A stretch of DNA of 64,000 nt, from assembly GCA_041664925.1 (NCBI GenBank), contig JBAYJV010000001.1:293262-357261 (forward strand), in the 5' to 3' direction. This document shows, piece after piece, positions 281-50,682 of the stretch. The translations under genes and the position numbers were made by a program. Every line of letters starts with the position of its first letter. The stretch's first letter is position 1. The notes under the pieces are model-generated. The model made no database searches, was not told where the DNA came from, and saw only the letters and a program-made list of their open reading frames with translations. This DNA comes from Minisyncoccota bacterium. GTDB taxonomy: Bacteria; Patescibacteriota; Minisyncoccia; JBAYJV01.

Positions 281-467
281 ACTAAATTTATTCTGAATTT
301 TAAAGTCTAAAGTCCCGTACCAGAATCGCTATGTCGTGGTTTTTGTATTTAAACAGATTTGGTACATAAACGAGAAGATTCGGTACGGGATATAAGAAAC
401 TCTAGATTCGTAAACTCACTAAGAATTTCTAATATCTAAAGTTTATAGTTTATGGTCTAAAGTTTTT

Positions 468-3497: not shown

Positions 3498-3989
3498 ATG
3501 GAATTCAAAACAAACAATTTCGAAGAAACAGTGAACTTGGGTAAAAAATTGGTCCTAGATTTTTTAGAATCGGAGCAGCACAGAAAATCAGCGCTTGTTA
3601 TTGTGCTTGAAGGCGATCTGGGAGCAGGAAAAACTACTATTACCCAAGGATTCGCTCAAGCATTGGGCGTCGAGAGCTGGATTAAAAGCCCAACCTTTGT
3701 TCTTATGAGAGAGCACAAGATTAGTCCGGAATACGAAGTACGAAGTTCGAAGTACGAAGAAAAAAACAGTAAACCAAATCGCTTAACTACCCTAATTCAT
3801 ATTGATTGCTACAGAGTTGATAATCCAGACGCCTTAATTGAAATCGGGATTAAAGATATATTAGCTGATCCTCAAAATATTGTTTTTATTGAATGGGGAG
3901 AAAAAATCGCAAAATTACTGCCAAAAAATATCATAAGAATAAAAATTAAACATTTAAAAGAAGATCAAAGAAAAATTACAATAAATTAA
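3498..3989 (+). CDS. tsaE: tRNA threonylcarbamoyladenosine biosynthesis ATPase TsaE (YjeE), with in-frame low-complexity insertion
   Basis: P-loop LEGDLGAGKTTITQGF, SPTF...HIDCYRV motifs of TsaE; contains 4x heptamer TACGAAG array (3732..3759) encoding extra EYEVRSSKYEE segment. Confidence 0.75.
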   Translation: MEFKTNNFEETVNLGKKLVLDFLESEQHRKSALVIVLEGDLGAGKTTITQGFAQALGVESWIKSPTFVLMREHKISPEYEVRSSKYEEKNSKPNRLTTLIHIDCYRVDNPDALIEIGIKDILADPQNIVFIEWGEKIAKLLPKNIIRIKIKHLKEDQRKITIN

Positions 3990-4118
3990 ATCCGAAAATC
4001 GAAACAATATTTAATCTCGAAATCATAAATTCTAAACGGTTTAAAACATTAAATATTAGAATTTTGAATTTGTTTCGAATTTCGTGCTTCGAATTTCAAA
4101 TTTGTTATAAGGTTTAGT

Positions 4119-6434: not shown

Positions 6435-7475
6435 ATGTCAAGAAAAAAGACTAAAAAAATTAAGGCCATTGGATTTTTAATAATATTATTGCCTTTGATT
6501 TTGTTTTTTGTATTGAGCAATAAAAATACAGAAATTAAAAAAGAATCATCGGAAACTCCTCCAACTCAAACACTAAATACAGATTTAAGTCCTATCTCGG
6601 GCTTGCCATGCAAAAATTACAATCGCCGACCTTTTGCCATTATGCTTGCCGGAGATGAAGTCGCTAGGCCTTTGTCCGGTCTTCAATCTGCTGACTTAGT
6701 TGTTGAAATGCCCGTTTTAATATCAGGCATGAATCGCTTAATGGCTGTGTATGTTTGTGGCAACCCAGAGGAAATTGGTAGTGTCCGATCAGCCAGACAT
6801 GATTTTATTCCTCTTGCTATGGGCCTTGATGCCATTTTTGCTCACTGGGGCGGATCTTCGTTTGCACTAGATAAGTTGAATGCCGGTATTATGGATAATA
6901 TCGACGCTCTTTTATACTCTCAAACGGCATTTTGGCGCCAATCTGGTATCCCAGCTCCTCACAATGGCTTTACTAGTATTGAAAAATTAACCAATCAGGC
7001 TAATAAACTTAATTATCGCATGGAGAACAAATTTGAAGGATACCCACACAAAAATGTCAAAATTCAAAGCTCAAATGTCAAAAGCAGGTTGATTATTGGT
7101 TATCCTGATATTAATAAAGTTTGGTGGGATTATAATCCCGAAACCAACGAATATGCAAGGTGGCGCGGATCAAAAGAAGAAAAAGACTATAATTCTAATC
7201 TTCAGGTTAAATCAAAAAATATTGTAGTCATGAGAGCTAATTCTCGTTTTATGGAAGATCAGTACATTGATGTTGATATTGAAGGAGAAGGAACTGCAGA
7301 ATTTTATTTAAATGGCCAAAAGATTGAAGGCACTTGGAAAAAAGAAGGTTCGTATCAGCCAACCAAACTTTATTTTTATGATAATCTTGGTAAAGAAATT
7401 GAGTTTGTGCCGGGACAAATTTGGATCGAGGTTATTGAGCCAGACAAAATTGTAACTTACGAAGAAATAAAATGA
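6435..7475 (+). CDS. hypothetical membrane-anchored extracytoplasmic protein (possibly DUF3048-like)
   Basis: N-terminal basic stretch + TM helix, no catalytic motif recognised; ATGA overlap with downstream holA. Confidence 0.35.
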   Translation: MSRKKTKKIKAIGFLIILLPLILFFVLSNKNTEIKKESSETPPTQTLNTDLSPISGLPCKNYNRRPFAIMLAGDEVARPLSGLQSADLVVEMPVLISGMNRLMAVYVCGNPEEIGSVRSARHDFIPLAMGLDAIFAHWGGSSFALDKLNAGIMDNIDALLYSQTAFWRQSGIPAPHNGFTSIEKLTNQANKLNYRMENKFEGYPHKNVKIQSSNVKSRLIIGYPDINKVWWDYNPETNEYARWRGSKEEKDYNSNLQVKSKNIVVMRANSRFMEDQYIDVDIEGEGTAEFYLNGQKIEGTWKKEGSYQPTKLYFYDNLGKEIEFVPGQIWIEVIEPDKIVTYEEIK

Positions 7476-13926: not shown

Positions 13927-14976
13927 ATGCCTACAGAATTTATTAAAGATAAAAAAATTTGGGACAAGCTTATCACAAACCAAGACTCAGGCTTTATGCA
14001 GTCTTGGGATTGGGGAGAATTTAAAGAAAAATTGGGCCATAAGATTTGGCGCATGGCCATTAAGGGAAACGGTCAATGCCAGTATGCTCAAATTATTAAA
14101 CATCGATTGCCTTTGAAAAAATCATACTTTTATATTCCCCAAAGCCCAATTTTTAACTCTCAACTTTCAACTATCAACCATCAACCAATGGAATTATTGA
14201 TTAAGGACATCTGTAAATTAGCAAAGAAAGAAAAGGCGGTATTTATAAAGTGGGAACCGCTTGCCGAATCAAGCGCCGATATTAAAAGATTGAAAAAAGC
14301 TGGATTTGTTGAATCAAAAAACATTCAACCGAAAGATACCTTAGTTTTAGATCTTTCACAAACAGAAGAAGAAATTTTCCAAAACTTCCATAGCAAACAT
14401 AGATACAATATAAAACTGGCTCAAAAAAAAGGCATTCAAATAAAAATCCTTGATTCTGATGGTGAATTTGAAGAATTTTACGGACTGGTAAAGAAAACTG
14501 ACGAAAGAAAGCATATAAAATCATTTCCCAAACAATATTACAAAGAGTTATTCGAGCTTGCTAAAAAATCTGCAAAAACCAAGACATCGCCTGATCTTGA
14601 AATTAGGTTTTTTGGAGCCTATTTTGGCAAAAACATCGCTGCTGGGCTAGTTTTGGTTGTTTGGAATGATAAGGCCATGTATCTTATTGGGGCAAACGAC
14701 TATGAGTATCGACAATGCATGGCTCCCCACCTGCTCCAGTGGGAAACCATTAAAGAGTCTCGAAAGATTGGAGCAAAAGAATATGATTTTTGGGGTATAA
14801 TTAGAAAAGAGGATTTTGAGTCAGATAAAGAATTTGAAAAACACCCGTGGGCAGGCATCACAAGGTTTAAAATAGGTTTTGGTGGGAAAACTGTACAGTT
14901 TGAAAAAACTTTTGACTATATTGTCTCGCCTTTTTGGTATAAAATCTATAAACTAGCGATAAAGCTTAAAATGTAA
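13927..14976 (+). CDS. FemAB-family peptidyltransferase (peptidoglycan interpeptide bridge formation, FemX/MurM-like)
   Basis: FMQSWDWGEFK start and overall FemAB (COG2348) pattern; adjacent to murE; contains in-frame heptamer-like array 14148..14176. Confidence 0.65.
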   Translation: MPTEFIKDKKIWDKLITNQDSGFMQSWDWGEFKEKLGHKIWRMAIKGNGQCQYAQIIKHRLPLKKSYFYIPQSPIFNSQLSTINHQPMELLIKDICKLAKKEKAVFIKWEPLAESSADIKRLKKAGFVESKNIQPKDTLVLDLSQTEEEIFQNFHSKHRYNIKLAQKKGIQIKILDSDGEFEEFYGLVKKTDERKHIKSFPKQYYKELFELAKKSAKTKTSPDLEIRFFGAYFGKNIAAGLVLVVWNDKAMYLIGANDYEYRQCMAPHLLQWETIKESRKIGAKEYDFWGIIRKEDFESDKEFEKHPWAGITRFKIGFGGKTVQFEKTFDYIVSPFWYKIYKLAIKLKM

Positions 14977-15044
14977 AGCGTAAAACGCAAAACAACAACT
15001 TAAAACTCAAAACTGTTTTGCATTTTCCTGCTTATTGTGGGCAA

Positions 15045-16403
15045 ATGCTTATCTCTTGGACTCCTATGAAATCTTTAATTCGCAGAGTTGTACCTAAGCT
15101 AATAGTCAAAATTTATCATTTTTTGATGGCTTTTTGTGTTGCTTATTTCTATGGTTTTCCTTCTAACAAAATGGTCATTGTCGGTGTTACGGGAACAGGA
15201 GGAAAGTCGACCACAGTTAAAATGATTGGTTCCATTTTAGAAGAATACGGCTCCCGTGTTGGCTGGCTCTCGTCTTTGACCCTTAAAATTCTCGATAAAG
15301 AGTGGGTAAATCCATACCACATGACTATGCTTGGAGGGTTCAAGCTGCAAAAATACTTAAGAGATATGGTCAAGGAGGGCATTCATTATGCAGTTGTTGA
15401 GGTAACTTCTGAAGGAATAAAGCAATTTAGACACATTGGGATTAATTTTGATGTTTTGGTTTTCACTAACCTAACTCGAGAACACATTGAGGCTCACGGC
15501 TCATTTGAAAATTATCGCAACGCAAAACTAACGGTCTTTAAAAAATTATCATCTAAGAAAAGAAAAAAGCTTTCATGGATGAAAGAAGTACAACCAAAAA
15601 TCATCATTGCTAATTTAGATGATGAAAATGCGAGTTATTTTATAGAAAACCAGGCCGATAAGAAATTTGGTTATTCTTTAAAAGAAATTGAAGCTCTAAG
15701 TAAAGATATTAAGCTTTTTCAGGTAGCGTCTTCAAAAGTTGATGAACATGGAGTAAGTTTTAAACTTGATAGCACCGAATTTAATGTTTCTCTTCTTGGA
15801 GAATTTAATATTTATAATGCTCTTGCTGCTGTGACTACTACCAGAGCTTTAGGTATAGATTTTATAACCGCCAAACATGCCCTTTTGAAAATAAAAACAG
15901 TTCCTGGTCGAATGGAAAAGATTGAAAACAATAAAAATATTAATGTTGTTATTGACTTGGCTCATACACCGGACTCGCTAAAGCAAGCTTATGAAACTCT
16001 TAGAAAAGCCTATTTCCTCGTACCGGGATTTAAGAATATGATTTGCGTTTTTGGTTCCGCTGGCGGAGGTAGAGATAAGTGGAAACGACCAGTTATGGGA
16101 GAAATCGCTGGCGAATATTGCGATAAAATCTTTTTAACCAATGAGGATCCGTATAGCGAAAATCCTCAGGAAATTATTAAAAGCATTGAAGATGGCGTTA
16201 AAAAAAGCAAAAAAGCTGAAAATCAGGACTATTTCAAAATCGAAGACAGGACAGAAGCAATCAGACAAGCGCTAAAATCGGCTAAAAAAGATGATTTGGT
16301 TGTTATTACTGGCAAAGGAACAGAAGCAACAATGGTTATCGGGGAAGAAAAAATTCCTTGGAATGAAAAAGAAGTCGTTAAAAAGGAACTAGATAATCTA
16401 TAG
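15045..16403 (+). CDS. murE: UDP-N-acetylmuramoyl-tripeptide ligase MurE (start uncertain; track ORF begins at TTG 15018)
   Basis: Mur ligase P-loop GVTGTGGKSTT, central and C-terminal Mur domains, C-terminal ITGKGTE...IPWNEKE typical of MurE. Confidence 0.75.
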   Translation: MLISWTPMKSLIRRVVPKLIVKIYHFLMAFCVAYFYGFPSNKMVIVGVTGTGGKSTTVKMIGSILEEYGSRVGWLSSLTLKILDKEWVNPYHMTMLGGFKLQKYLRDMVKEGIHYAVVEVTSEGIKQFRHIGINFDVLVFTNLTREHIEAHGSFENYRNAKLTVFKKLSSKKRKKLSWMKEVQPKIIIANLDDENASYFIENQADKKFGYSLKEIEALSKDIKLFQVASSKVDEHGVSFKLDSTEFNVSLLGEFNIYNALAAVTTTRALGIDFITAKHALLKIKTVPGRMEKIENNKNINVVIDLAHTPDSLKQAYETLRKAYFLVPGFKNMICVFGSAGGGRDKWKRPVMGEIAGEYCDKIFLTNEDPYSENPQEIIKSIEDGVKKSKKAENQDYFKIEDRTEAIRQALKSAKKDDLVVITGKGTEATMVIGEEKIPWNEKEVVKKELDNL

Positions 16404-19104: not shown

Positions 19105-19722
19105 ATGCCAACAAAAAAATTTATTATTACAAGACGCCAAAAAGAGATTCTAGACTTTATCTTGGATTTCATGGATGAAAACGGTTACAGCCCAAGCCTA
19201 CGCGTTATTGGAAAGGCCATGGGGCTTTCGTCGCCTTCTTCTGTCCATGAACAAATAAAGAAGCTTCAGGAAGCTGGCTTTCTTGAAAGAGAAGATGATT
19301 CCAGATCATTTCTCCCATCAGGAAAAGCCTTAAATTTAACCGAGAAGTTTTCTGTGCCAGTTCTGGGAACTATTGCTGCCGGCTCACCAATTCAGGTCTT
19401 TGAATACCAAGAAAACTTGATGATTCCTAAAACATTAATTTCAAACGGCCACACTGATCTTTTCGCTCTTGAAGTTAAGGGAAATTCGATGATTGAAGAA
19501 GGTATTATGGATGGCGACTATGTTATTTGCGAACCGTCACAAAATGTTAAAAATGGCGATGTCGTAGTCGCTCTAGTTAATGGCACGGAAGTAACTTTAA
19601 AGAAATTCTATAAAGAGAAACGCTGGATTCGCCTTATGCCGGCAAATTCAAAAATGCGTCCTATTTTATCGCGAAATGTCTTGGTTCAAGGGGTTGTGAA
19701 AGCCGTGTTTAGAAAATACTAA
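19105..19722 (+). CDS. lexA: LexA repressor (S24 self-cleaving peptidase)
   Basis: N-terminal winged HTH (TRRQKEILDFI), Ala-Gly cleavage region, Ser (GNSM) / Lys (LKKF) dyad. Confidence 0.85.
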   Translation: MPTKKFIITRRQKEILDFILDFMDENGYSPSLRVIGKAMGLSSPSSVHEQIKKLQEAGFLEREDDSRSFLPSGKALNLTEKFSVPVLGTIAAGSPIQVFEYQENLMIPKTLISNGHTDLFALEVKGNSMIEEGIMDGDYVICEPSQNVKNGDVVVALVNGTEVTLKKFYKEKRWIRLMPANSKMRPILSRNVLVQGVVKAVFRKY

Positions 19723-19840
19723 ATTTTAATTTTCAACTATCAATCTTCAATTATCGACCAATTGTAGGATTGATTTTTTTAATTCAATTTTATCTAGATT
19801 TGTGCTAATCTATAAATAAGATTTTGTAAAATTACGAAAA

Positions 19841-25985: not shown

Positions 25986-26091
25986 GGAGGGTGCCATGGC
26001 GGTAGTAATGGGATGCGGTCCGATTCCTATAATTCGCAGGGTTCCGACGAACAAAAAGAAACACAAGTAGTTCCTAAAAAAAACAAAGACA

Positions 26092-26125
26092 GCGCCTAAA
26101 AGCGCTGCTTTTTTTATTCTATATT
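26092..26125. terminator. bidirectional terminator (CAGCGC-ctaaaa-GCGCTG + T7)
   Basis: hairpin flanked by A8 and T7. Confidence 0.55.
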
Positions 26126-26157
26126 CTAACTTCCAACTTCTAGCTTCTAGCTTCTAA
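26118..26157. repeat. heptanucleotide tandem array (CTTCTAG/CTTCTAA/CTTCCAA, about 5 units) in 3' UTR of dciA-like gene
   Basis: period-7 repeats directly visible. Confidence 0.6.
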
Positions 26158-26462
26158 CGCGCCACCTTTACTTTTATTTCCTTAATTAAAGAACCAATCA
26201 ATACTCGGTTGGTTTTGTCTTTTATTTCATCCTGATAAAATCTCAGTTCTTGCGCCAGATAACTATTGGCACATTTAACATACAGTACCGATCCTCTGAA
26301 TTCAAACTTCATATCCTGATCTAAGACGCATTTCTCAAAACCTAACAACTTCTCAATAACTTTTCTTGCTTCCTTAAAAACTTCAATTCTTTCAAGTCCT
26401 CTTTTAAACCTCGGATCTTTTTTTACTTTATTAATAGCATAATTTATACTGCTGAAAGCCAT
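26154..26462 (-). CDS. DUF721-family protein (DciA-like candidate replicative-helicase operator/loader), adjacent to dnaN
   Basis: 102 aa, position immediately downstream of dnaA-dnaN, C-terminal pattern LYVKCANSYLAQEL...RVLIGSLIKEIKVKV resembling DUF721. Confidence 0.45.
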   Translation of the reverse strand: MAFSSINYAINKVKKDPRFKRGLERIEVFKEARKVIEKLLGFEKCVLDQDMKFEFRGSVLYVKCANSYLAQELRFYQDEIKDKTNRVLIGSLIKEIKVKVAR

Positions 26463-26463
26463 A

Positions 26464-27573
26464 TTATTCAGTATCGCGAACTGGCATAGCGATATAAGTA
26501 TACGAATTATCGGTTGCCGATTTCATTAATAATGGCCTTTCTTTGCCGTTTGCTCGTAAAATCACCTTATTTTTATCAGTATTATTAAGTCCGTCTATGA
26601 GATAGCGATAATTAAAGACTAGTTTTACATCTTCGCCCTTAACTTCCGCTTTAATGCTTGAATTATGTTCTCCTAATTCTTGAGATTTAGAAGATATTTC
26701 AATCAGTCCTTTATTAGAAAAAGAAAGATTAATGTCATTAACTTTTGTAACAAAAAAACTAGCAATCTTAATCGCTTCAATTAGTTTGTCTTTTTCAACC
26801 ACAACCTCTGTTTGGAATTCTTGAGGAATAATTCTTTCGTAATCGGGAAAATGACCTTCTATTAATCTTGATATCAGTTGAATGTCTTCAATGTCAAACA
26901 AAATCTGATTTTCTTTAATTGTAATTTTAATATCCTTATCAATATCACTTAAAATTCTTGTAAGTTCAATAATGGTTTTTAGTGGGATAATCAAGGATAT
27001 TTCTTGGTTTTGTTGAGGAAGAGCTTTTTTCATTACCTTTTCTGCTAAACGAAAACTATCAGTCGCTACTAATTTAAGATCGCCTTGTTGGGTGATTTTA
27101 AACAAGACACCAGAAATCTCTGGTCTAGTATCGGAAAAAGAAGCTGCTTGGTGAACTTGAGACAAAGCTTTGTGAAAATCTCTTGATTTAATAATAAAGA
27201 GTGGATTCTCTTCTATTTTGGGAATAATCGGAAAATCCTCAGCGCTCATTCCTTTAATATTTGCGTTGAAATTATTGCATTTAACCATTAGGTCGTGCTT
27301 TTCCGATTCGAGACTGACTTTGTCTTGAGGAAGAGAAGAAACAAAATTACTCAAAACCCCGACTGGAACAGTAATTTTTCCATCTTCATCAACCTTTGCT
27401 GATACCCAAGTAGTTAATCCGATCTCAAGATCAGTCGCCGAAACCTTGAGTCTGCCTTTATCTGTTTCAATTAAAATATTACTCAAAATAGGCAGGTTGA
27501 TATTTTTTCCAGTAACTCGTTCAACGATACTAATGGCTTTTTTTAATTTTTCTTGAAGACAAATAATTTTCAT
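26464..27573 (-). CDS. dnaN: DNA polymerase III beta sliding clamp
   Basis: 369 aa three-domain clamp pattern, position after dnaA. Confidence 0.9.
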   Translation of the reverse strand: MKIICLQEKLKKAISIVERVTGKNINLPILSNILIETDKGRLKVSATDLEIGLTTWVSAKVDEDGKITVPVGVLSNFVSSLPQDKVSLESEKHDLMVKCNNFNANIKGMSAEDFPIIPKIEENPLFIIKSRDFHKALSQVHQAASFSDTRPEISGVLFKITQQGDLKLVATDSFRLAEKVMKKALPQQNQEISLIIPLKTIIELTRILSDIDKDIKITIKENQILFDIEDIQLISRLIEGHFPDYERIIPQEFQTEVVVEKDKLIEAIKIASFFVTKVNDINLSFSNKGLIEISSKSQELGEHNSSIKAEVKGEDVKLVFNYRYLIDGLNNTDKNKVILRANGKERPLLMKSATDNSYTYIAMPVRDTE

Positions 27574-27864
27574 AATTATTATTAATATTTTATATATTTA
27601 AAGAACTAATTATTACTAAGAATTTTTATTTTGGGGATAAGTTCTAGAAAATTGTTATTTGGCGCGGGTAAATCACTAAAGCTCATACGGATTATCTGTG
27701 AATATCTCGGGATTTTTTCTCTAAACACGAGGATAAGTTTTTCAATTTTAATTTTCTGAAAAATATATCCATCGAATTGTACGCGTGATTAACCAATGGT
27801 TATCCTCAGCTTTTCCCCAGAAATTAGTAAGTCTATAAAACTTCTTTGACAGAAAAAGCAAACC
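27574..27864. promoter_or_regulatory. candidate oriC: AT-rich unwinding stretch plus DnaA-box-like 9-mers in dnaA-dnaN intergenic region
   Basis: one-mismatch boxes TGGGGATAA (27632-27640), TTATCCTCA (27800-27808), plus weaker ones; AT-rich tract 27574-27640. Confidence 0.55.
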
Positions 27865-29232
27865 TTAGGTGTTGTAAAGTCGCTCCTTTATTAGGTTTAA
27901 CTCCATTACGAGACCTTCATCTAATTGGCGATTGTGTTCGACTTTATCGCAAGCATGTATAACTGTCGTGTGATCGCGGCCACCGAGTTTTTTTCCGATA
28001 GAAGGATAAGATTCGTGAAGCTCTTCCCTGAGAAGATACATCGATATCTGACGCGGTTTGACTAATTCTTTTTTTCGGCCTCCCTCAATAATGTCTTCTA
28101 GAGGTATTTCATAAAACTCCGCAACTGTCTCTAATATCTTTGAAGAAGAAACACGCTTGGGTGGTCTCACAATTAAATTTTTCAAAAGCTCTTTAGCTTT
28201 TTCTAAATCAGGAATACTGTTATTAGATTTATAGTAAGCATGAATTTTATTTAAAGAACCTTCAAGTTCGCGAACGTTTTTTTGAACTTTACTGGCAATA
28301 AAATGAATAATATCGTCAGAAAGATTGTATTCTAAGGTTTCAAGTTTAGATTTAAGAATAGCAATGCGGGATTCGAAATCTGGATAAGAAATATCAACCG
28401 TCATACCTCCCTCAAAACGGGAACAGAGGCGTTCTTCTAGGGTAGGAATTGCCTTAGGCGGGCGATCAGAGCTGATAATAATTTGCTTATTGGCTTCATA
28501 TAAAGCATTAAAAGTGTGGAAAAATTCAATCTGGGTTTTCTCCTTTCCGGCCAAGAATTGAATATCGTCAATAATCAAAACATCAATCTTGCGATATTTC
28601 TTTTTAAAATCTTCCATTCTTTGGGTGCGGATAGCGTCAATTAACTCACTCGTAAAAGCTTCGGAAGAAATATATTTAACCTTAATTTGTCCGGGATACT
28701 GTTTAACTAATTCGTTGCCGATTGCCTGTAAGAGATGAGTTTTTCCTAAACCAACACCGCCATAAATAAAAAAGGGATTATATTCCCTTCCAATGTTTTC
28801 TGGTTTTACCAAAGAGAGAGCAGCAGCGTGAGCAAGTTCATTGAACGAACCGACAATAAAAGTCGAAAAATCGTATTTAGGATTTAAATTGGTTTCCTCA
28901 TCGATGATTCGATTATTAAGCAATCCCAACTGAGGTTCTTGAGCTGATTCTTCAGGGCGACGATTAATAATAACATCAACAACTCTTCTGGAAGCAACAA
29001 TATATTCCAATTTCTTTACTTCGGGAGAAACATTGCGCAAAGCGCGCAGGATTAAAGTGTTACATCTATTTTCAAGCCACTCGCGAGTGAACTGATTGGG
29101 AACTTCAAGTGTACAAATACCTTCATTTCTGGAAACAAGTCGAGCGTTTTTAATCCAAGTAACAAAATTGGCCTTAGAAACAGATAATTCTATTTCACCG
29201 ACAGCAGCTTGCCAAAGTTCTTCAATGTTCAT
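27865..29232 (-). CDS. dnaA: chromosomal replication initiator DnaA
   Basis: AAA+ Walker A GGVGLGKTHLL, Walker B LIIDDIQF, C-terminal DNA-binding domain. Confidence 0.95.
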   Translation of the reverse strand: MNIEELWQAAVGEIELSVSKANFVTWIKNARLVSRNEGICTLEVPNQFTREWLENRCNTLILRALRNVSPEVKKLEYIVASRRVVDVIINRRPEESAQEPQLGLLNNRIIDEETNLNPKYDFSTFIVGSFNELAHAAALSLVKPENIGREYNPFFIYGGVGLGKTHLLQAIGNELVKQYPGQIKVKYISSEAFTSELIDAIRTQRMEDFKKKYRKIDVLIIDDIQFLAGKEKTQIEFFHTFNALYEANKQIIISSDRPPKAIPTLEERLCSRFEGGMTVDISYPDFESRIAILKSKLETLEYNLSDDIIHFIASKVQKNVRELEGSLNKIHAYYKSNNSIPDLEKAKELLKNLIVRPPKRVSSSKILETVAEFYEIPLEDIIEGGRKKELVKPRQISMYLLREELHESYPSIGKKLGGRDHTTVIHACDKVEHNRQLDEGLVMELNLIKERLYNT

Positions 29233-29523
29233 AAACGAAGGATAACATCTTTAAGGTTATTTTAGCACGGAATCTTTAAATGCAATCTTTATCAACAAAT
29301 GCGTGAATAATGCTGTTTTAGGGGATTAACCTGCATTTTTTGTTGATAACCTGTGTAAAACTCCTTAATAACATCATTATTCTATATCTAACCCACCTCC
29401 AATTGCAATAGATACGCAAAATCAGAAATTCTTACCTAATCTAAAAAACACTTGAGTGTTTTGGGTGGTGACATCAAAACTAAAATGATAAAATAAGAAC
29501 ATGCTTAATTAATAATTTTTAAA
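29233..29523. promoter_or_regulatory. dnaA upstream region with two inverted one-mismatch DnaA boxes (TTATCAACA)
   Basis: 29289-29297 TTATCAACA and 29341-29349 TGTTGATAA. Confidence 0.45.
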
Positions 29524-30878: not shown

Positions 30879-31706
30879 TTAGTTTAATTTGAAAAGCGTT
30901 TTTGCATTTTGGGTGGTGACTTGAGCAACTTCTTGAAAACCAATGCCTTTTATTTCCGCAATCCTTTCCGCGACATATTTTACATACAGTGGCAGATTTT
31001 TTTTGCCTCTGAATGGTACAGGCGCAACATAAGGACAATCAGTTTCCACCATCAATTTTTCTAGCGGGGTTTCTTTTATAATTTCATCGTATGCCTTAGT
31101 AAAAGTGATGACGCCTGTAAAAGAAATTAAAAATCCTAGCTCAATCATTTCTCTGGCATCTTCTTTCGTTCCAGAAAAGAAATGAGCAGTGCCGCGAAGC
31201 GGTATTTCGAATTTCGAATTTCGAATTTCGAATTTAAGGATCTTTACAAGATCCTTCCATGCTTCTCGGCAGTGGATAATAATCGGAAGATTGAGTTTTT
31301 GAGCAAACAAAACCTGTTGTTTAAAAGACTTCTTTTGAGCTTCTTTGTCTTCTTCTGTTTTTGCGTAAGTATAGTCTAGTCCGATTTCGCCAATCGCAAC
31401 GACTTTTTTGCTTTTTGCGAGTATCTCATATTTTTTGGCATCAAATTCTTCGGGACGAGATTTAAAACTTGGTTCGACTTCATTGACATCGACTTGGTTG
31501 GGAATAGCGTGGATGGGGTGAAGGCCGATGGCGGCCCAAACGCCAGTTTTGTATCTTTCGGCAATTTCAACGGCGCGCTTGCTGGTTTCATATTGCGAGC
31601 CGACATTGATTAATTGAATATCATTTTTAAAACATTGATCAATAACCTGGTTATGATCATCTTTAAAGGCGTTGAAATTGAGATGGGCGTGGGTGTCGAT
31701 TAACAT
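30879..31706 (-). CDS. tatD: TatD-family metal-dependent DNase/hydrolase (ATG start at 31706; track used upstream TTG at 31721) with in-frame heptamer-repeat insertion
   Basis: MLIDTHAHLNF start, TIM-barrel His/Asp/Glu metal ligands (IGEIGLDY, IIHCREA); 4.5x ATTTCGA array 31204..31236. Confidence 0.85.
   Translation of the reverse strand: MLIDTHAHLNFNAFKDDHNQVIDQCFKNDIQLINVGSQYETSKRAVEIAERYKTGVWAAIGLHPIHAIPNQVDVNEVEPSFKSRPEEFDAKKYEILAKSKKVVAIGEIGLDYTYAKTEEDKEAQKKSFKQQVLFAQKLNLPIIIHCREAWKDLVKILKFEIRNSKFEIPLRGTAHFFSGTKEDAREMIELGFLISFTGVITFTKAYDEIIKETPLEKLMVETDCPYVAPVPFRGKKNLPLYVKYVAERIAEIKGIGFQEVAQVTTQNAKTLFKLN
31204..31236. repeat. 4.5-unit tandem heptanucleotide repeat (ATTTCGA) inside tatD coding sequence
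   Basis: directly visible; encodes KFEIRNSKFEIP. Confidence 0.7.
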
Positions 31707-31953
31707 AAACTTAAAGCGCAAAGCTTAAAGCGAAAAACAACAACTTAAAACTTAAAATTGAGAATAGTAGCAACAAACATCTTTTAGTCATTCTGAGTGC
31801 AACGAAGAATCCTGGGATCTTTCGGTCGCCTTGGGCGACCTCAAGATGACATTACTTTTATTTTAAAGGTTTTTAGGGAAAAAGAAAGCCGTGAGCTTGT
31901 ATTTTTTCAATAAAAATATAAAATGAAAATATGCAAAAAGGAGGAATAAAAAT

Positions 31954-34408: not shown

Positions 34409-34690
34409 ATGATTGAGAGTTTTCATTGCAAAGAAACACAGAAGATTTTTAAAAGAGAAACCTCTTCTAAGCTTCCTCATTTAATTCAACGATCAGCCGT
34501 AAGAAAACTTTTAATAATAGATGCGGCTGTGTCCTTAAAAGATCTTCGTATTCCCCCAGCTAATCATTTAGAGAAATTAAGGGGGAAAAGAAAAGGACAG
34601 CATAGTATTCGCATCAATGGTCAATGGCGCATATGTTTTGAATGGAAACAAGGCAATGCTTATAGGGTAGAGATTTGCGATTATCATTAA
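34409..34690 (+). CDS. higB: HigB-type toxin (plasmid maintenance system killer protein, RelE superfamily)
   Basis: MIESFHCKETQKIF...RKGQHSIRINGQWRICFEW...ICDYH matches HigB (COG3549) pattern. Confidence 0.8.
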   Translation: MIESFHCKETQKIFKRETSSKLPHLIQRSAVRKLLIIDAAVSLKDLRIPPANHLEKLRGKRKGQHSIRINGQWRICFEWKQGNAYRVEICDYH

Positions 34691-34699
34691 TAAAAAAAC

Positions 34700-35005
34700 A
34701 TGACCACAAAAAAAATGAAACCAATTTATCCGGGAGAAGTCCTTAAAGAAGAATTTTTAAAACCCCTTGAAATCTCGGAATATCGCCTAGCGAAGGATAT
34801 TGCCGTATCTCCCAGACGCATCAATGAAATTACACATGGAACAAGGGCGATTACTGTTGATACGGCGCTTCGTTTTGCCAAATATTTTGGCAATTCACCT
34901 CAGTTTTGGCTAAATTTACAATCGCATTACGAATTGGAGATACAAGAAGAAAGCATGAAAGATATCTTGAAATATAAGGTAAAAACCCTTAATTATGCGA
35001 TGTAA
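34700..35005 (+). CDS. higA: HigA antitoxin (XRE-family HTH)
   Basis: MKPIYPGEVLKEEFLKPL...SPQFWLNLQ matches HigA (COG3093). Confidence 0.8.
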   Translation: MTTKKMKPIYPGEVLKEEFLKPLEISEYRLAKDIAVSPRRINEITHGTRAITVDTALRFAKYFGNSPQFWLNLQSHYELEIQEESMKDILKYKVKTLNYAM

Positions 35006-44462: not shown

Positions 44463-45401
44463 TTATAAAGTTGTAATTGGTCGAGCTTGGAGAATATAAA
44501 GCGTATTATTTTCAAGCGCCCATTCAATATCTTGCGGCTTTCCGTAATGATTTTCAATATTGATAGCGATTTTCGCCAATTCCTTGATTTTTTCATTTGA
44601 TAATTTCTGTTTATCTTTTTTATCGTCAGGTACTGCTCTTTCTTCTGTGTCAAAATCAGGTTTTCTGACAATCATTTTTGTTTGTTCAGATGTGCTGACA
44701 TCAATAAAATTGAGAGTGCTTTTTTCAATAACATAACTATCGGGCGTAATACTTCCCTGAACTAAAGCTTCTCCCAATCCCCAACAAGCCTCCGCAATCA
44801 TTTGATCTTTATCTCGAGTGACTGGATGGACCGTAAAACAAACGCCGGCAACTTCAGAATCAATCATTTTTTGGACTACTACTGCCACAGAAACCAATTT
44901 TCCTTTATAACCACGCTCGAATCTGTAACATAGTGCTCTTGGAGAAAACAGCGAAGCCCAACATTTTTTTACGCTTTCTAAAACATTATTTTTGTTTATA
45001 AAAAGATAGCTTTCAAGTTGGCCTGCCCAAGCGTCAATAGCGGAATCTTCGGCAGTAGCTGACGACCTGATGGCAACATATTCTGTGTCAAGATTATCAA
45101 AATTAATTAAAATTTCTTCTTTAATATTCTCAGGAATGCTTCCATTAGAAACGATATTATGAATTTCTTCTGAACAGGATTCTATGGCTGAAGAATCCTG
45201 AGTATCAACCTTGTCCAATAATTTATCAATTTTTGTTTTAATATCGTTATCTTTTAAAAATTTATCAAAAGCAGAAGCAAGGACAACAAAACCCGGAGGA
45301 ACAGGGATGCCCGCCTGAGTCATTTCGCCCAGAGACGCTCCTTTTCCACCGGCAATTCCTACATCATTTTTTGAAATTTCTCTAAAATTCTTGATATACA
45401 T
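44463..45401 (-). CDS. stand-alone PPDK_N / PEP-synthase N-terminal ATP-grasp nucleotide-binding domain protein
   Basis: VGIAGGKGASLGEM, GIPVPPGFVV, VAIRSSATAEDS, GVCFTVHP, DIEWA...LQARPITTL; no swivel or TIM-barrel domain. Confidence 0.8.
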   Translation of the reverse strand: MYIKNFREISKNDVGIAGGKGASLGEMTQAGIPVPPGFVVLASAFDKFLKDNDIKTKIDKLLDKVDTQDSSAIESCSEEIHNIVSNGSIPENIKEEILINFDNLDTEYVAIRSSATAEDSAIDAWAGQLESYLFINKNNVLESVKKCWASLFSPRALCYRFERGYKGKLVSVAVVVQKMIDSEVAGVCFTVHPVTRDKDQMIAEACWGLGEALVQGSITPDSYVIEKSTLNFIDVSTSEQTKMIVRKPDFDTEERAVPDDKKDKQKLSNEKIKELAKIAINIENHYGKPQDIEWALENNTLYILQARPITTL

Positions 45402-46321: not shown

Positions 46322-47734
46322 TTATGTTTTCTCTAATATTTTAATCATACCCTTATTCGCATCGACTTCAACCAAATCACCATCTTTAAGTATTTGAGTT
46401 GCAATTTTTGTACCAATAATACAGGGGATTCCTAATTCTCTACTAACTATAGCTGCATGACACAATATTCCACCTTCATCTGTGATAATGGCACCGGATC
46501 GCTTAATCACTCCTATAAGATTAGGCGTTGTCATGGTTGTAACCAAAATTTCTCCATTCTGTAATTCTTTAGCCATTTCTGTGCTTAGGATTATTCTGAC
46601 TCGTCCTTTGTATGTGCCAGAATTAGCTACTGTTCCCTTGATTTCTTCAAAATAGGTTTTTTCTTCTTCAAACGGAAGTTCACTATACGAAACAATTCCA
46701 CCTATAAGGATATTTGTGAAGTATTGTTTTCGTTTTATTATATCAATTTCAGTTTTGTTTTTAAAAAGATTATCGATTTCTAATACATTATACCAAACGA
46801 TATCCTCAAATTTAATATTGAATTTATTGGCAATTGCCCTAAGTAACGATCTAATGCGGTATTGTCCTAGTGTAAGCACTGTAATTCTGTTCATTCTGAA
46901 AATCATATAATCTTGGAGTAATTCGGATATCTCTATAATGTCTTTTGGCAGGGAACTTATAGATTCTATGTACTTGGCTTTTTTCTCTTCTTGATTTGCC
47001 GTTAAATTATTTAGTTCTTCGGCAGGATTTTTAATATTTTCTATTGTTTTTAAGAAATAATCATCGTCATATGGTTCGCTCAATAGGTGAGTGGTAAGAC
47101 CCATATATCCAAAATTCGCACTATGTTGTTTTATTTGCTTATCAATATTTACTCCTGATCGTTTAAGGATAGCTATCTCTAGTAAATCTTTTTGTTCTTG
47201 AAAAAAATCACTATTTTCCTGAACAGTAGTTAGAACTCTAAAAATTTTATCTTGTTTTATTTGACTAGCGTCTTTTAAATAAATATTTATTTTATTCTTA
47301 AGCCCTTCCGTTAATATTTGTTCTGGAGCGAAAACGGTATGCATAAAAGGAGAGAAGGAATAAAAATCTTTCTTAAAAAGATCCCAATATTTCAATAACT
47401 TACTACTACTCACACTCATATTTGATTTACTGATGACCTCCGTAGTATTGAGAATCTTTTTTAACCTTTTCTTACCTTCCAGCAAATGTTCTTTCATAAA
47501 TTCTAAGGGGTTTTTGTTTGCCAAAAAAGCCTCTTTGAGATTTCGCTTGCTCTCTAAGTTCTGAAGAATAGAACAAAGCTTCTTTTTGTCTTCTACTCTA
47601 GACACAATATCAAAATTAACACCAACTAATTTTGGTATTTCTTTACTCATTCCTTGGCTAATTATGTCTAAAGTTAGGCCTGTTAGAGGCCTAGAAACTA
47701 CCTTAAACCACTTAGAATCATCGTATTTTTCCAT
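46322..47734 (-). CDS. PEP-utilizing-enzyme mobile (phosphohistidine swivel) domain protein, paralog A (likely start MEKYDD at 47734; track ORF extends to 47827)
   Basis: C-terminal GGILCHAAIVSRELGIPCIIGT...DGDLVEVDA; divergent ~370-aa N-terminal region. Confidence 0.65.
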   Translation of the reverse strand: MEKYDDSKWFKVVSRPLTGLTLDIISQGMSKEIPKLVGVNFDIVSRVEDKKKLCSILQNLESKRNLKEAFLANKNPLEFMKEHLLEGKKRLKKILNTTEVISKSNMSVSSSKLLKYWDLFKKDFYSFSPFMHTVFAPEQILTEGLKNKINIYLKDASQIKQDKIFRVLTTVQENSDFFQEQKDLLEIAILKRSGVNIDKQIKQHSANFGYMGLTTHLLSEPYDDDYFLKTIENIKNPAEELNNLTANQEEKKAKYIESISSLPKDIIEISELLQDYMIFRMNRITVLTLGQYRIRSLLRAIANKFNIKFEDIVWYNVLEIDNLFKNKTEIDIIKRKQYFTNILIGGIVSYSELPFEEEKTYFEEIKGTVANSGTYKGRVRIILSTEMAKELQNGEILVTTMTTPNLIGVIKRSGAIITDEGGILCHAAIVSRELGIPCIIGTKIATQILKDGDLVEVDANKGMIKILEKT

Positions 47735-49157
47735 ATTTTCTATGAATAATTTTAATTTTACCCTTATTTGCATCGACTTCAACCAAATCACCATCTTTAA
47801 GTATTTGAGTTGCAATTTTTGTACCAATAATACAGGGAATATTAAACTCTCTGCTGATTATAGCTGCATGACACAATATTCCACCTTCATCTGTGATAAT
47901 GGCACCAGCCTTTTTAACAGCGCCAATTAAGTTAGCCGTAGTCATTGATGCAACCAAAACCTCTCCTTTTTTGAATGATTTAATCTTATCAAGACCTGTT
48001 ATTATTTTTACGTAACCAGTGTATTTTCCTGTCTTTGCTATTGATCCTGAAAATTCATTTCCGGAGACATTATCAGAAGTTTTTTCAACTTCTTCATAAT
48101 AGATTTTCCCATTTATTAAACTGGATACGAAAGATTTTTTTCTGGCTTCAACATTAGTCTTTTTAGGACGAATAAAAAGATTATCTATTTCTGGTACTGT
48201 GTACCAAATAATATCTTCAAATTTGATATCAAATCTTTTACCTATCTCTCTGGTAAGTTTTTTAACATAGTGTAATCCGACATTCATTCCTTCAGCTCTT
48301 TCCGTTCTAAAGATTGTATATTCCTGAAGAAGCTCAGCGAGTTTTACAATATCTTTTGGTATAGATTTTGCGAAACTATTGTATCCAGAAAGTATTTCTT
48401 TTTTATTTTTTTCTAATTTGATTAGTAAGTCTTTTGGATTTTTTATCTCATTTATGATTTCAAGAAAATGTTTTCTATCATACGGTTCGCTTGAAAGATG
48501 AGCGGTTATCCCCATATTTCCGAATTTTTTAATATGATTCTTTAATCTGTTCTCTATGTTTTTATTTTTTCTTATAAGAATACCTATTTCCAAAAGATCT
48601 TTCTGTTCTAGGTAGAAAATACTATCTTTTTTAATTGTTGTTAACAGCCTAAAGTAGTTTTCTTTATCTTTTGGAGAACTTTTCTTAAAATAAGCATCAA
48701 TCTTACTTTTCAGTCTGTTTGTAAGTATTTCTTCTGGAATAAAAGGGATATGAATAAAAGGACAGAAAGCGCAATAAGTTTTTTTAAACAGAATCCAATA
48801 ATTTTCTAGTTTTTCAATACTAACGTTCAGATTGTAACTATAAATTTTTTTTCCTACCCGTAGAGTTTTTTTTGTTCTTTTTCTTCCGATTTTAAGATGT
48901 TCTCTAAAAAAACTATAACCATTTTCGTGATTTTCAAAGATTTTTACCAATCTTTCTCTGCTTTCTTTCCCTTGATAGAGGGATAGGTCATTATCGTTTA
49001 TTGATTTTTCACATTTTAAATCTAATGTTGTGCCAGTAAGTCTTGGCATCTCTTCGTTTATGCCTTGAGCAACCAAACTAAAAGTTAAAATCGTGGCTGG
49101 TCGCGCAACCACCTTAATCCATTCCATATTTTCTGTAGGATTAATTTTCTTTTTCAC
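47718..49157 (-). CDS. PEP-utilizing-enzyme mobile domain protein, paralog B
   Basis: C-terminal GGILCHAAIISREFNIPCIIGT...DGDLVEVDA; 3' 150 nt about 92% identical to paralog A. Confidence 0.65.
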   Translation of the reverse strand: MKKKINPTENMEWIKVVARPATILTFSLVAQGINEEMPRLTGTTLDLKCEKSINDNDLSLYQGKESRERLVKIFENHENGYSFFREHLKIGRKRTKKTLRVGKKIYSYNLNVSIEKLENYWILFKKTYCAFCPFIHIPFIPEEILTNRLKSKIDAYFKKSSPKDKENYFRLLTTIKKDSIFYLEQKDLLEIGILIRKNKNIENRLKNHIKKFGNMGITAHLSSEPYDRKHFLEIINEIKNPKDLLIKLEKNKKEILSGYNSFAKSIPKDIVKLAELLQEYTIFRTERAEGMNVGLHYVKKLTREIGKRFDIKFEDIIWYTVPEIDNLFIRPKKTNVEARKKSFVSSLINGKIYYEEVEKTSDNVSGNEFSGSIAKTGKYTGYVKIITGLDKIKSFKKGEVLVASMTTANLIGAVKKAGAIITDEGGILCHAAIISREFNIPCIIGTKIATQILKDGDLVEVDANKGKIKIIHRKYGKIR

Positions 49158-50682
49158 TTTTTAATATTTTTACAACACCTCTATCTGCATCAACTTCAAC
49201 AAGATCGCCATCTTTAATGACTTTTGTAGCGTTTTTTGTGCCAATAATGCAGGGTTTTTTGAGCTCTCTGGCAATAATAGCAGCATGGCAAGTCAATCCT
49301 CCTTCATCAGTTACAATTGCTCCGGCCAATCGCATTACAGGCACGAAATCAACTGTAGTTGATTGAGCTATAAGAATTTCTCCTTTTTCCATTTTATTCA
49401 TTTCAGCGGTTGATAAAATTAACCTAGCAATGCCTCGAATTTTTCCTTTAGCGCCGATCTGGCCCGTAATTGTATCTATTTTTTCTGTTTCTTTTTTAAA
49501 TTGATCGAAATTGCTTTTTACATAATCTATTTCTTCTTGAACAAGCTCCCTGATACCATATTCAACGGAAAGGATTAAATTATATCCATTTTTTCTTTGC
49601 TGGTATTTTGTTTTTAACCCTTCTAATGATACTTTGCCCAAAATGCCATCTTTTATTTCTTCTGGCGAAAGACAATAAACCTGTTGCCAATTTTCCAAAT
49701 CAAGAATTTTTGCGATTGTATCAAAAAATGGTCTTACCAAGAAACCAACGTGAGAAAAAATACTCTTTCGATATTCAGCCAAAACAGTCCCCAGGCGCAT
49801 TGCTAAAATTATATTTTTTAATTTTTCAGACATTGGTAAATCACCAAATAATTTATCGCGTTGCGATAATATTTCTTTTCTGTGTGTTTTTTTAGCAGTG
49901 ATTTGTTCTTGGCAATCTCCATTATTGATGTATTTTTTAATGTCTTCGATAAATTTTGGTTCAGGAATAGGTTCGTCGATAAAATTTACCGTTATCCACG
50001 CTGAATCATTCATTAATTGATTGAGTTTTTCTTTAAAAGGAGTACCAGATAAGATGCTATTAAAATTGTTTCTGGTTTTTTTCATTTCTTCTTGTATCCA
50101 AGAAGATAATTCAAGTACGGCAATTTCTTGTTTAAAAGCTGGGGTTTCTTCATCCGGCGTAACCAATATATTAATATTTGCATCAATTTCACTAGGATCA
50201 ATATTTTTTAGTTCTTCTTTGGCAATAATAGGAGCTAACCTAGACAAATCCCAATTTAGCATTGATGTGATCATTAACCCCAAGGACAGAGCAATGTGCG
50301 ATTCGCAATATTGATCTAATTTTTTGATTAAATCATTTTTATCAGAAATCTCTTTGATTTTATTTAATTCATAAGCAATCTTAAGGAATTGCTCGCCTCG
50401 ATCTAAGAATTTTTGCTTGAGATTTTTACCTAAAAAACCATAAGGATCTTTAATAGATTCTGTTATTAAAAAATCAAGAACCTTTTCGTCGGAAATTTTA
50501 GTATCAAAAATAGCGCAACGGGTTCCTTCAGAAATCCATAATTCTTCCAGTGGCGGGACCTTCCAACTGTCAGCTCCATACGTAAAACCAACAGCATCTA
50601 AGTAACGCTGAAAAAATGCAAAATTGCGCGTAAGCTGATAATTCCAATTTTCTGGACTAAAAATTTTTAAATCTATAGGCAT
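49141..50682 (-). CDS. PEP-utilizing-enzyme mobile domain protein, paralog C
   Basis: C-terminal GGLTCHAAIIARELKKPCIIGT...DGDLVEVDA. Confidence 0.65.
   Translation of the reverse strand: MPIDLKIFSPENWNYQLTRNFAFFQRYLDAVGFTYGADSWKVPPLEELWISEGTRCAIFDTKISDEKVLDFLITESIKDPYGFLGKNLKQKFLDRGEQFLKIAYELNKIKEISDKNDLIKKLDQYCESHIALSLGLMITSMLNWDLSRLAPIIAKEELKNIDPSEIDANINILVTPDEETPAFKQEIAVLELSSWIQEEMKKTRNNFNSILSGTPFKEKLNQLMNDSAWITVNFIDEPIPEPKFIEDIKKYINNGDCQEQITAKKTHRKEILSQRDKLFGDLPMSEKLKNIILAMRLGTVLAEYRKSIFSHVGFLVRPFFDTIAKILDLENWQQVYCLSPEEIKDGILGKVSLEGLKTKYQQRKNGYNLILSVEYGIRELVQEEIDYVKSNFDQFKKETEKIDTITGQIGAKGKIRGIARLILSTAEMNKMEKGEILIAQSTTVDFVPVMRLAGAIVTDEGGLTCHAAIIARELKKPCIIGTKNATKVIKDGDLVEVDADRGVVKILKSEKEN

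Follow-up and report, generated by a model that had tools for sequence, protein, structure and literature searches.

Period-7 tandem repeats and a heptamer-armed palindrome family in a Patescibacteria genome

Introduction

Why should tandem repeats with a unit of seven nucleotides (nt) recur at locus after locus in a small, gene-dense bacterial genome? The question is raised by a 64-kb stretch of DNA, hereafter the window, from a Minisyncoccota bacterium of the Patescibacteria (assembly GCA_041664925.1, contig JBAYJV010000001.1, positions 293,262 to 357,261), which is 35% GC and approximately 92.5% coding, with 7.5% in spacers. The TatD and FemAB proteins encoded here are identical to proteins that NCBI assigns to a "Candidatus Paceibacterota bacterium" MAG (metagenome-assembled genome). 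A first-pass annotation had noticed several heptamer arrays here, two of them apparently related copies, one after a FemAB-family gene (copy A) and one upstream of tatD (copy B), and had proposed a lineage-specific repeat-generating mechanism or a dispersed small element rather than chance. Here we report an excess of period 7, a preference of the arrays for gene boundaries and surface loops, their persistence with concerted change of units, a dispersed palindromic family, and at least one mobile heptamer-flanked element. The explanation we favour, with modest confidence, is that the arrays arise by slippage as heptamer versions of known long repeats, that small non-autonomous elements also carry them, and that the arrays are a genome habit of this Paceibacterota (Parcubacteria, candidate phyla radiation, CPR) bacterium and of Patescibacteria at large.

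Two papers state that heptanucleotide repeats are the most over-represented class of long simple sequence repeats (LSSRs) in many prokaryotes, name the short tandemly repeated repetitive (STRR) sequences of Calothrix and Nostoc as examples, and give polymerase slippage with a 7-nt footprint as a proposal attributed to Mrazek and colleagues (PMC4679880, PMC4692102). Other cases are the GGGAATC repeats of Xanthomonas and the GGGGA(T/C)T repeats of Nostoc (PMC4692102), and the TAACTGA direct repeats of marine Beggiatoaceae, cyanobacteria and Bacteroidetes (MacGregor 2015; PMC4679880). Our literature search found no paper on heptamer repeats in Patescibacteria. The STRR sequences of Calothrix were reportedly described by Mazel et al. 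in 1990, and prokaryotic long simple sequence repeats are said to have been surveyed by Mrazek et al. in 2007. Why period 7 is favoured in bacterial long repeats has been a standing question since that description and that survey.

Results

Period 7 stands out in the window

Tandem Repeats Finder (TRF) returned 55 rows for the window, 11 of them with period 7 (3.7-8 copies) and none with a period below 7. A lag scan with a segment score of at least 12 found four period-7 segments, against 0.0 in 40 dinucleotide shuffles, and over periods 1-24 only period 14 besides 7 exceeded these shuffles. At looser lag thresholds, periods 7, 14 and 21 reached 3-20 times the Markov-3 controls and periods 2-5 were depleted. 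These comparisons establish that the periodicity is real and specific to 7. By TRF and direct reading the window holds ten arrays of head-to-tail 7-nt units in at least three copies, six in spacers and four in frame in coding sequence, and all six spacer arrays abut a start or stop codon. Every array listed in the first-pass annotation is present, at or within a few bases of where it was placed. The picture of a purely intergenic family does not hold, given the four coding arrays, and the list was incomplete: it missed the two strongest arrays (31204-31235 and 3732-3759) as well as two weaker ones (7052-7082 and 424-465).

Arrays are frequent in Patescibacteria and persist in position

A TatD-alignment scan of contigs from named genomes gave 80 TatD-containing loci among the matches listed; the peptide patterns of the scan were generic and no close relatives were among these loci. 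These loci were used as a control set of CPR versus non-CPR DNA. Period-7 arrays number 23 in the 217 kb of the 13 Patescibacteria loci and 26 in the 1,076 kb of the 67 loci from other bacteria, the latter clustered in a few metagenome-assembled genomes (MAGs) of Desulfobacteraceae, Nitrospiraceae, a Deltaproteobacterium, Aridibacter, Longimicrobiaceae and one Oscillospiraceae. When close relatives are included, 409 kb of Patescibacteria DNA contains 49 arrays of period 7 versus 4-15 for each of the other periods between 5 and 12, so that period 7 is enriched here as in the window; approximately 60% of these arrays lie inside open reading frames (ORFs) by a crude call.

Syntenic relatives (L081, L083, L085, L146-L149 and L165) hold arrays at the same spacers and loops as the window, with position kept and unit drifted. 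Between relatives at approximately 70-85% protein identity, orthologous arrays differ in both unit and length. With approximately one array per 8-9 kb in Patescibacteria and one per 41 kb in other bacteria, and with unit turnover of the concerted-evolution type, a lineage-dependent repeat-generating process finds support. The stronger word "lineage-specific" was right as to dependence on lineage and wrong as to uniqueness, heptanucleotide repeats having already been described in prokaryotes.

These data also refute chance, low-complexity AT-rich composition or assembly artefact as a source of the arrays, and we regard the weight left to this reading as negligible. The genome is indeed 35% GC, and TRF scores are only 31-34 for the short and degenerate arrays at 440-465, 4073-4103, 7052-7082, 14960-15014 and 31706-31731. 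However, neither dinucleotide nor Markov-3 shuffles produce a comparable excess, other periods are not enriched, and the AT-rich Firmicutes loci of the control set (26-35% GC) have no period-7 arrays. An assembly artefact is unlikely because the same arrays recur, unchanged, in relatives whose assemblies were made independently from different samples.

Several arrays outside the window are observations in their own right. The longest perfect heptamer array in the analysed DNA, (AACAGGG)x9, spans 65 nt (L005, 16374-16438), apparently within an ORF, on a Moraniibacteriota contig of 54% GC. The Xanthomonas repeat unit GGGAATC occurs 4.5 times in a CPR FemAB gene (L149, 10125-10156). The unit AGTGACG is common to Saccharibacteria (L008, 8534-8560) and Desulfobacteraceae (L021, 6141-6211), and in L021 arrays are arranged as adjacent inverted pairs. 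A Nitrospiraceae MAG (L032, 6441-6471) has TGGTCAT-type units, which resemble the Calothrix STRR unit, TTGGTCA.

A dispersed palindromic family includes copies A and B

Copy A (14962..15058, + strand) is a decayed full element and copy B (31707..31760, + strand) a half-element consisting of left arm and core. The left arm of copy A reads GTAAAGC GTAAAAC GCAAAAC and its core, to 15015, AACAAC TTAAAAC TCAAAAC; the T-rich right arm, TTTTGCA TTTTCCT GCTTATTGT, is decayed. Copy B reads CTTAAAG CGCAAAG CTTAAAG CGAAAAA CAACAAC TTAAAAC TTAAAAT. An ungapped alignment of A (14962-15015) with B (31707-31760) covers 54 nt at 83% identity and includes an exact shared 19-mer, and a profile built from independent family members recovers A at an nhmmer E of 4.3e-18 (model positions 3-94) and B at 2e-9. 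The two copies suspected of being related are thus truly homologous.

Copy A begins within the final codons and the stop (14974-14976) of the FemAB gene. It takes up most of the 89 nt that separate this gene from the Mur ligase ATG at 15066. In the corresponding spacer L147 retains only a right-arm remnant, and L146, with 10 nt, has lost the element, so that the insertion is old and decaying. Copy B abuts the ATG of tatD (31706-31704, - strand), so that on the tatD sense strand a T-rich array runs up to the start codon without a Shine-Dalgarno (SD) motif. An orthologous array is found there in L083, and L081, L085 and L001 have other T-rich heptamer arrays at this position.

A scan of metagenome contigs with the 22-nt core alone (AACAACAACTTAAAACTNAAAA) returned 59 stretches. 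At approximately 19 independent loci among them an NNAAARC heptamer array, which was not in the query, lies directly upstream of the core, and most of these loci also have an inverted T-rich array downstream. Homologues of A and B are therefore present in other contigs, as the first-pass annotation had suggested checking. The family is an imperfect palindrome of approximately 100-120 nt, in which the core AAAACAACAACTTAAAACTTAAAA / TTTTGAATTTTGCACTGTTGTTTT is flanked by the arms (GCGYAAA)n and (TTTRCGC)n, with the consensus AAGCGTAAAGCGnAAAGCGCAAAGCGCAAAACAACAACTTAAAACTTAAAA-TA-TTTTGAATTTTGCACTGTTGTTTTGCGCTTTnCGCTTTnCGTTTT. Members sit in short spacers, in both orientations, beside housekeeping genes for RNase III, S4, S2, MurA, UDG, NrdD, SecF and RecX, and the gene flanking the member of 56% GC (L105) is by homology closest to Patescibacteria/Parcubacteria proteins. 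The family profile detected diverged copies in L149 (two) and second copies in L113, L132 and L126, all of them CPR loci, and no copies in 1.07 Mb of non-CPR loci. When 9.5 kb past the left window edge was fetched as a test, it yielded a third, full-length copy in the same genome (L165, 18525-18638; E 4.6e-12), 6.4 kb outside the window. With three copies in approximately 77 kb of this genome and many in metagenome contigs, the suggestion of a dispersed small element is borne out.

These results bear on the idea that local slippage acted without dispersal, the likeness of A and B being convergence on favoured A/T-rich heptamers. A single genome does contain many different units, orthologous arrays change by single substitutions that then spread along the array, and a slippage hypothesis has been published (as cited in PMC4679880 and PMC4692102). 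But A and B share an exact, non-periodic 19-nt core and the same order of units, the architecture is repeated in approximately 19 unrelated contigs and three times in this genome, and a 73-nt element with a non-repetitive 40-nt centre (described below) is 97% identical in two genes. Local slippage alone is largely refuted for A and B, and we consider it very unlikely.

Two other identities for the elements were rejected. A small ORF in group-3 elements was ruled out by an early stop codon, and integron attC sites by their core sites, GTTRRRY / RYYYAAC, which do not fit GTTTTGC-type units. The 22-mer core was also seen in other settings. Without heptamer arms (AACAACAACTTAAAACTTAAAA), it forms, in one marine phage lineage, a leader that stops 3 nt short of the ATG of a structural-looking gene (L087, L092-L096 and others; L150-L164 from IMG/VR). 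This may be chance or a shared A-rich translation leader, and since the arms are missing, phages are not shown to carry the family. In a related type of element, AAACTTA-type heptamers and the same 22-mer core are followed by a period-8 array, (AATTGTTG)n. This type was seen in L090, L111, L117, L125, L131 and L142, with two copies 1.3 kb apart in L111.

Folding, orientation and a possible role in RNA

Six of eight family members fold to long hairpins (z -3.2 to -6.1), some of them built of 5-bp helices with 2-nt mismatches between them every 7 nt. The window copies and the other window arrays fold weakly, at z -1 to -2 (copy A, z -1.8), and copy B has one arm, so the hairpin is clear only in the better-preserved members. 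RNAalifold on nine members predicted only the apical hairpin; covariation is unusable in this alignment, as the search pattern had fixed its left side. Rfam 15 gave no match at gathering score in the window and only chance-level matches (E at least 0.09) for seven family loci. Promoter and terminator scans at A and B found no consensus and nothing above shuffles, and the family stems, AU-rich with periodic mismatches, are unlike the GC-rich stem-loop and U-tract of an intrinsic terminator. The first-pass annotation had suggested checking for a link with gene 3' ends and terminators: each spacer array touches a start or stop codon, and no terminator-like site is present at copies A and B.

The elements could nevertheless act in cis at the RNA level, either as SD-independent leader platforms for proteins of the oligonucleotide/oligosaccharide-binding (OB) fold or as inter-cistronic AU-rich hairpins. 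Cold-shock proteins (CSPs) or S1 would bind the leaders, at approximately one protein per 7 nt, and in co-directional spacers the hairpins would act as transcript 3' ends, stabilisers or RNase III sites. T-rich arrays reach the tatD start without an SD motif in the window and in L081, L083, L085 and L001, which parallels the Beggiatoaceae TAACTGA repeats that replace SD and for which CSP/S1 binding has been proposed (PMC4679880). In addition, members that fill co-directional spacers from the upstream stop codon fold well, the family core is better conserved than the arms, and the same 22-mer leads the phage structural-type gene. Several observations speak against such a role. Hairpin members lie in both orientations relative to flanking genes (approximately 8 sense, 3 antisense), copies decay, A and B fold poorly or lack one arm and show no GC-rich stem with U-tract, the same site in relatives holds unrelated units, and no covariation is demonstrable in the nine-member RNAalifold alignment. 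Many arrays are in coding sequence, where they could not act as leader or terminator. Arrays upstream of starts are those of tatD in the five lineages and, roughly, that of the gene at 4119; others lie at stops, between convergent genes or in coding sequence. On balance we think this explanation unlikely, though with a real chance of being right.

In-frame arrays occupy variable loops of conserved proteins

The strongest array of the window consists of 4.6 perfect copies of ATTTCGA (31204..31235, - strand; AAATTCG on the tatD sense strand; TRF 100% matches, score 64). It is in frame in tatD and encodes KFEIRNSKFEI in a surface loop that is variable across 33 homologues and 5 residues longer than in Thermotoga maritima TatD (1j6o), at a site between HCR...ILK and GVAHFFSG. 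The same site holds AAATTAG / AAATTCG units in L085, TACGAAG / TACGAAA in L083 (AAATACG register), TTTAGAA-type units in L081, AAATTCA in L148 and AACTACA in Saccharibacteria L011. In tsaE, four copies of TACGAAG (3732..3759, + strand; TRF and translation) are in frame and belong to a 19-residue insertion, EYEVRSSKYEEKNSKPNRL, relative to Haemophilus influenzae YjeE (1htw); in L149 the same loop holds heptamers plus a nested insert.

In the FemAB gene, the array AACTCTC AACTTTC AACTATC AACCATC AACCA (14155..14187, + strand) encodes NSQLSTINHQP in frame. At the same position, relatives P0257-P0259 have NFQFSIFNF, four copies of AATTTTC, and NFQFSIFNF also occurs at this loop in a Doudnabacteria protein (P0291) with 39% identity. 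A weaker array, AAATGTC AAAATTC AAAGCTC AAATGTC (7052..7082, + strand; TRF score 34), is in frame in a DUF3048 gene and encodes NVKIQSSNVKS; L146 and L149 have other heptamer arrays at the same position. The in-gene arrays are thus loop insertions relative to solved TatD (1j6o) and TsaE (1htw) structures, and in TatD and FemAB the loops are variable in alignments. Survival within a gene would need a unit without a stop codon in any frame and an insert length divisible by three. The units AAATTCG, TACGAAG and AACTATC are free of stops in all frames; the intergenic units TAAAGCG and CTTCTAG are not.

Heptamer-bearing elements move between genes

A 73-nt element is present, at 97% identity, in frame in tatD of L148 (10457-10564) and in frame in the FemAB gene of L149 (10349-10421). 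It consists of AAATTCA AAATTCA G, a GC-richer centre of 40 nt and AATTCAA AATTCAA AA, and encodes ...KFKIQTFPPRF(S/F)R(E/K)TGRFFNSKFK.... No other homologue has an insert at this loop of the FemAB protein. L148 and L149 come from separate but related samples and probably represent the same or closely related species. The same element in two unrelated genes shows that heptamer-bearing elements move.

Similar inserts nested within heptamer arrays were also found in L085 (tatD loop) and L149 (tsaE loop), and a different palindrome, GTCATTCTGAG...CTCAGAATGAC, is in frame in the tatD loop of Saccharibacteria L008. A palindrome of this L008-tatD type, GTCATTCTGAGTGCAACGAAGAATC...GACCTCAAGATGAC, lies next to copy B in the window (31787-31852; fold -23.9 kcal/mol, z -2.45).

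Other spacer arrays and genomic context

Four further arrays lie in spacers. Between tsaE and a 5'-3' exonuclease gene, CCGAAAA TCGAAAC faces a T-rich TTTCGAA-type array at 4040-4103 (whole feature 3993..4103, + strand), and the A-rich and T-rich arrays form a long imperfect hairpin (-22.7 kcal/mol, z -1.95). The same spacer holds inverted TTTCTAA/TTAGAAA arrays in L146 and a diverged copy of the A/B family in L149 (nhmmer E 2.4e-8). In the spacer that precedes xseA, the array TTTTCAA CTATCAA TCTTCAA TTATCGA CCAATTG (19720..19762, + strand) starts from the stop codon of a lexA-like gene. Over 31 nt it matches the in-frame FemAB array at 81% identity, and L146 has a diverged orthologue in this spacer.

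Between the convergent Wzy_C-like gene (+) and dciA (-) lies TATTCTA TATTCTA ACTTCCA ACTTCTA GCTTCTA GCTTCTA (26115..26158, + strand), which overlaps the dciA stop codon; orthologous arrays follow dciA in L081 and L083. Directly before it, at 26088-26114, a GC-rich stem and T-run (agcgcctaaaagcgctgcttttttt) resembles an ordinary terminator of the upstream + strand gene, so that the array is additional to the terminator and not its substitute. A weak array detected by TRF, AATTTCT AATATCT AAAGTTT ATAGTTT AT (424..465, + strand), stands directly downstream of the stop of a T2SSE-type ATPase gene (468-2114, - strand).

The genes dciA, dnaN and dnaA follow one another on the - strand in the region 26154-29523, with spacers of approximately 290 nt at 27574-27864 and 29233-29523. 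The replication origin probably lies within the window, and relatives share the tatD-dnaA-dnaN-dciA synteny. The arrays could accordingly be conceived as iterons, DNA sites bound by proteins for replication or chromosome organisation. Arrays at 26115, 31204 and 31707 do lie near dnaA, dnaN and dciA (26154-29232), and lag 21, which is enriched, equals three units or two helical turns (3 x 7 = 21 bp). However, arrays of this sort are spread over the entire 64 kb and also occur in relatives at loci distant from dnaA, many unrelated units are involved, arrays lie in coding loops, and the metagenome copies of the family flank unrelated genes. A DnaA-trio or iteron function was ruled out for the arrays as they are not clustered at oriC, and we consider any general role of this kind extremely unlikely.

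Elsewhere in the window, three tandem paralogous genes, each with a terminal PEP-utilizers mobile domain, lie at 46322-50682 beside a PPDK_N gene (44463-45401), and a 300-nt direct repeat with 76% identity lies between the first two. Two toxin-antitoxin pairs, PIN/MazE-like (2164-2815) and HigB/HTH (34409-35005), were annotated by synteny with relatives.

Discussion

The observations fit best, in our judgement, with heptamer arrays of the STRR/LSSR kind together with small elements that carry them. Slipped-strand mispairing in a 7-nt register would extend and homogenise arrays, and small non-autonomous elements with heptamer runs would seed arrays at new sites. Most copies would then be neutral or selfish passengers, retained in spacers and surface loops because they cause no damage there.

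A number of findings weigh against this explanation. Contigs that are 99.8-100% identical and come from different samples show no differences in the length of their arrays, which are therefore neither hypervariable at this time scale nor assembly artefacts; active slippage has to be proposed in the face of constant lengths. Nothing in the data gives a reason for 7 over 6 or 8. As to mobility, Pfam found no transposase, REP-associated tyrosine transposase (RAYT), integrase or reverse transcriptase among the window ORFs, no RAYT (IS200/IS605-like Y1 transposase) was found in approximately 77 kb of the 433-kb contig by Pfam on window ORFs and synteny annotations, and target-site duplications were not identifiable within the repetitive arms. 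The 22-mer core recurs in contigs of 27-56% GC, and the 60-nt family centre hardly differs between L126 and L127, which carry it at different loci and with variable arms. Together these suggest constraint on the core and not pure junk. The T-rich arrays at the tatD start codon in five lineages hint at a role in expression. Finally, identical NFQFSIFNF arrays in FemAB proteins that are only 39% identical are hard to explain by neutral descent.

Some of these points would be accommodated if the arrays were the footprint of a specific 7-nt machinery in Patescibacteria and scattered phyla, either a tiny mobile system or a protein that adds or recognises repeats in a templated manner. Machinery that targeted the same spacers and loops would explain the shared NFQFSIFNF, the arrays in the same TatD loop of Paceibacterota and Saccharibacteria, and the units GGGAATC and AGTGACG shared across phyla, and the palindromic core AAAACAACAACTTAAAACTTAAAA... 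would have a function of its own, as a recognition site or an RNA element. We regard such machinery as quite unlikely.

The arrays and their carriers are of a kind already known, namely heptanucleotide STRR/LSSR repeats and dispersed palindromes. As far as our search reached, the host lineage, the frequent in-frame arrays at conserved loops of essential genes and this heptamer-armed palindrome family appear to be undescribed. Like STRR/LSSR sequences, the arrays consist of head-to-tail 7-nt units, usually in 3-6 copies, with several units per genome, strong over-representation of period 7 alone and a mostly intergenic location; position is conserved while length and sequence vary between related genomes, inverted array pairs capable of hairpins occur occasionally, and the unit GGGAATC itself is found in L149. 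They differ in their host, a streamlined Patescibacteria genome that is approximately 92% coding, in A/T-rich units that do not form G-quadruplexes, in the large share that is in frame in housekeeping genes, at the same loops across CPR phyla, and in that some arrays are the arms of a sequence-conserved dispersed palindrome.

With the TAACTGA repeats they share direct heptamer repeats in 2-6 copies, occasional arrays within ORFs, and a patchy spread across phyla without a known vehicle. The TAACTGA repeats often lie a few nt upstream of starts in place of SD, as the arrays of the tatD leader do in five lineages. Yet no unit in the window is TAACTGA and no single unit dominates, the arrays vary in orientation and position with respect to starts, and no alternative RpoC is associated.

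Rickettsia palindromic elements (RPE), reportedly described by Ogata et al. in 2000, are said to be small repeats in frame in conserved genes. Here too small repeats in frame in conserved genes (TsaE, DUF3048, FemAB, TatD) add surface-loop peptides, and the 73-nt element of L148/L149 and the GTCATTCTGAG palindrome in L008 tatD behave so. Most in-frame inserts here, unlike RPE, are simple heptamer arrays and not palindromes of 100-150 nt, and the lineage is another one; the likeness is by description. Elhai et al. (2008, Genome Res 18:1484; cited in PMC3116915) are said to have described small dispersed repeats (SDR) of Nostoc as mobile sequences in hairpin contexts in heptamer-rich genomes. 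By this description, the nested inserts within heptamer arrays in L085, L148 and L149 look similar, in a different phylum.

REPINs are dispersed intergenic palindromes (PMC3116915). The family resembles these and other repetitive extragenic palindromic (REP) sequences, miniature inverted-repeat transposable elements (MITEs) and enterobacterial repetitive intergenic consensus (ERIC) sequences as short, non-coding, imperfect, hairpin-forming palindromes in many spacers, often between co-directional genes, with decaying copies and half-copies. It departs from them in that its arms are tandem heptamer arrays and not a unique inverted repeat, that neither RAYT nor transposase was seen in approximately 77 kb of this genome and no target-site duplications were identified in its arms, and that a 22-mer core is common to genomes of very different GC.

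Patescibacteria offer a different test bed for the old question of period 7, with tiny, gene-dense genomes, reduced repair and regulatory repertoires, and arrays even in essential genes. The palindromic family is a candidate for a new Rfam or repeat-library entry. If the pattern is genome-wide, peptides that derive from heptamers, such as KFEIRNS, NFQFSIF and YEVRSSK, are to be expected when CPR proteins are annotated and should not be taken for motifs. In that case the arrays, like the palindromic family, would serve as markers for strain typing and for studies of concerted evolution, and phylogenetic profiling of array-rich versus array-free lineages could indicate the enzyme behind the 7-nt register. 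Should a dedicated 7-nt machinery prove to exist, minimal genomes would have in it a so far unrecognised source of new protein loops and of spacer architecture.

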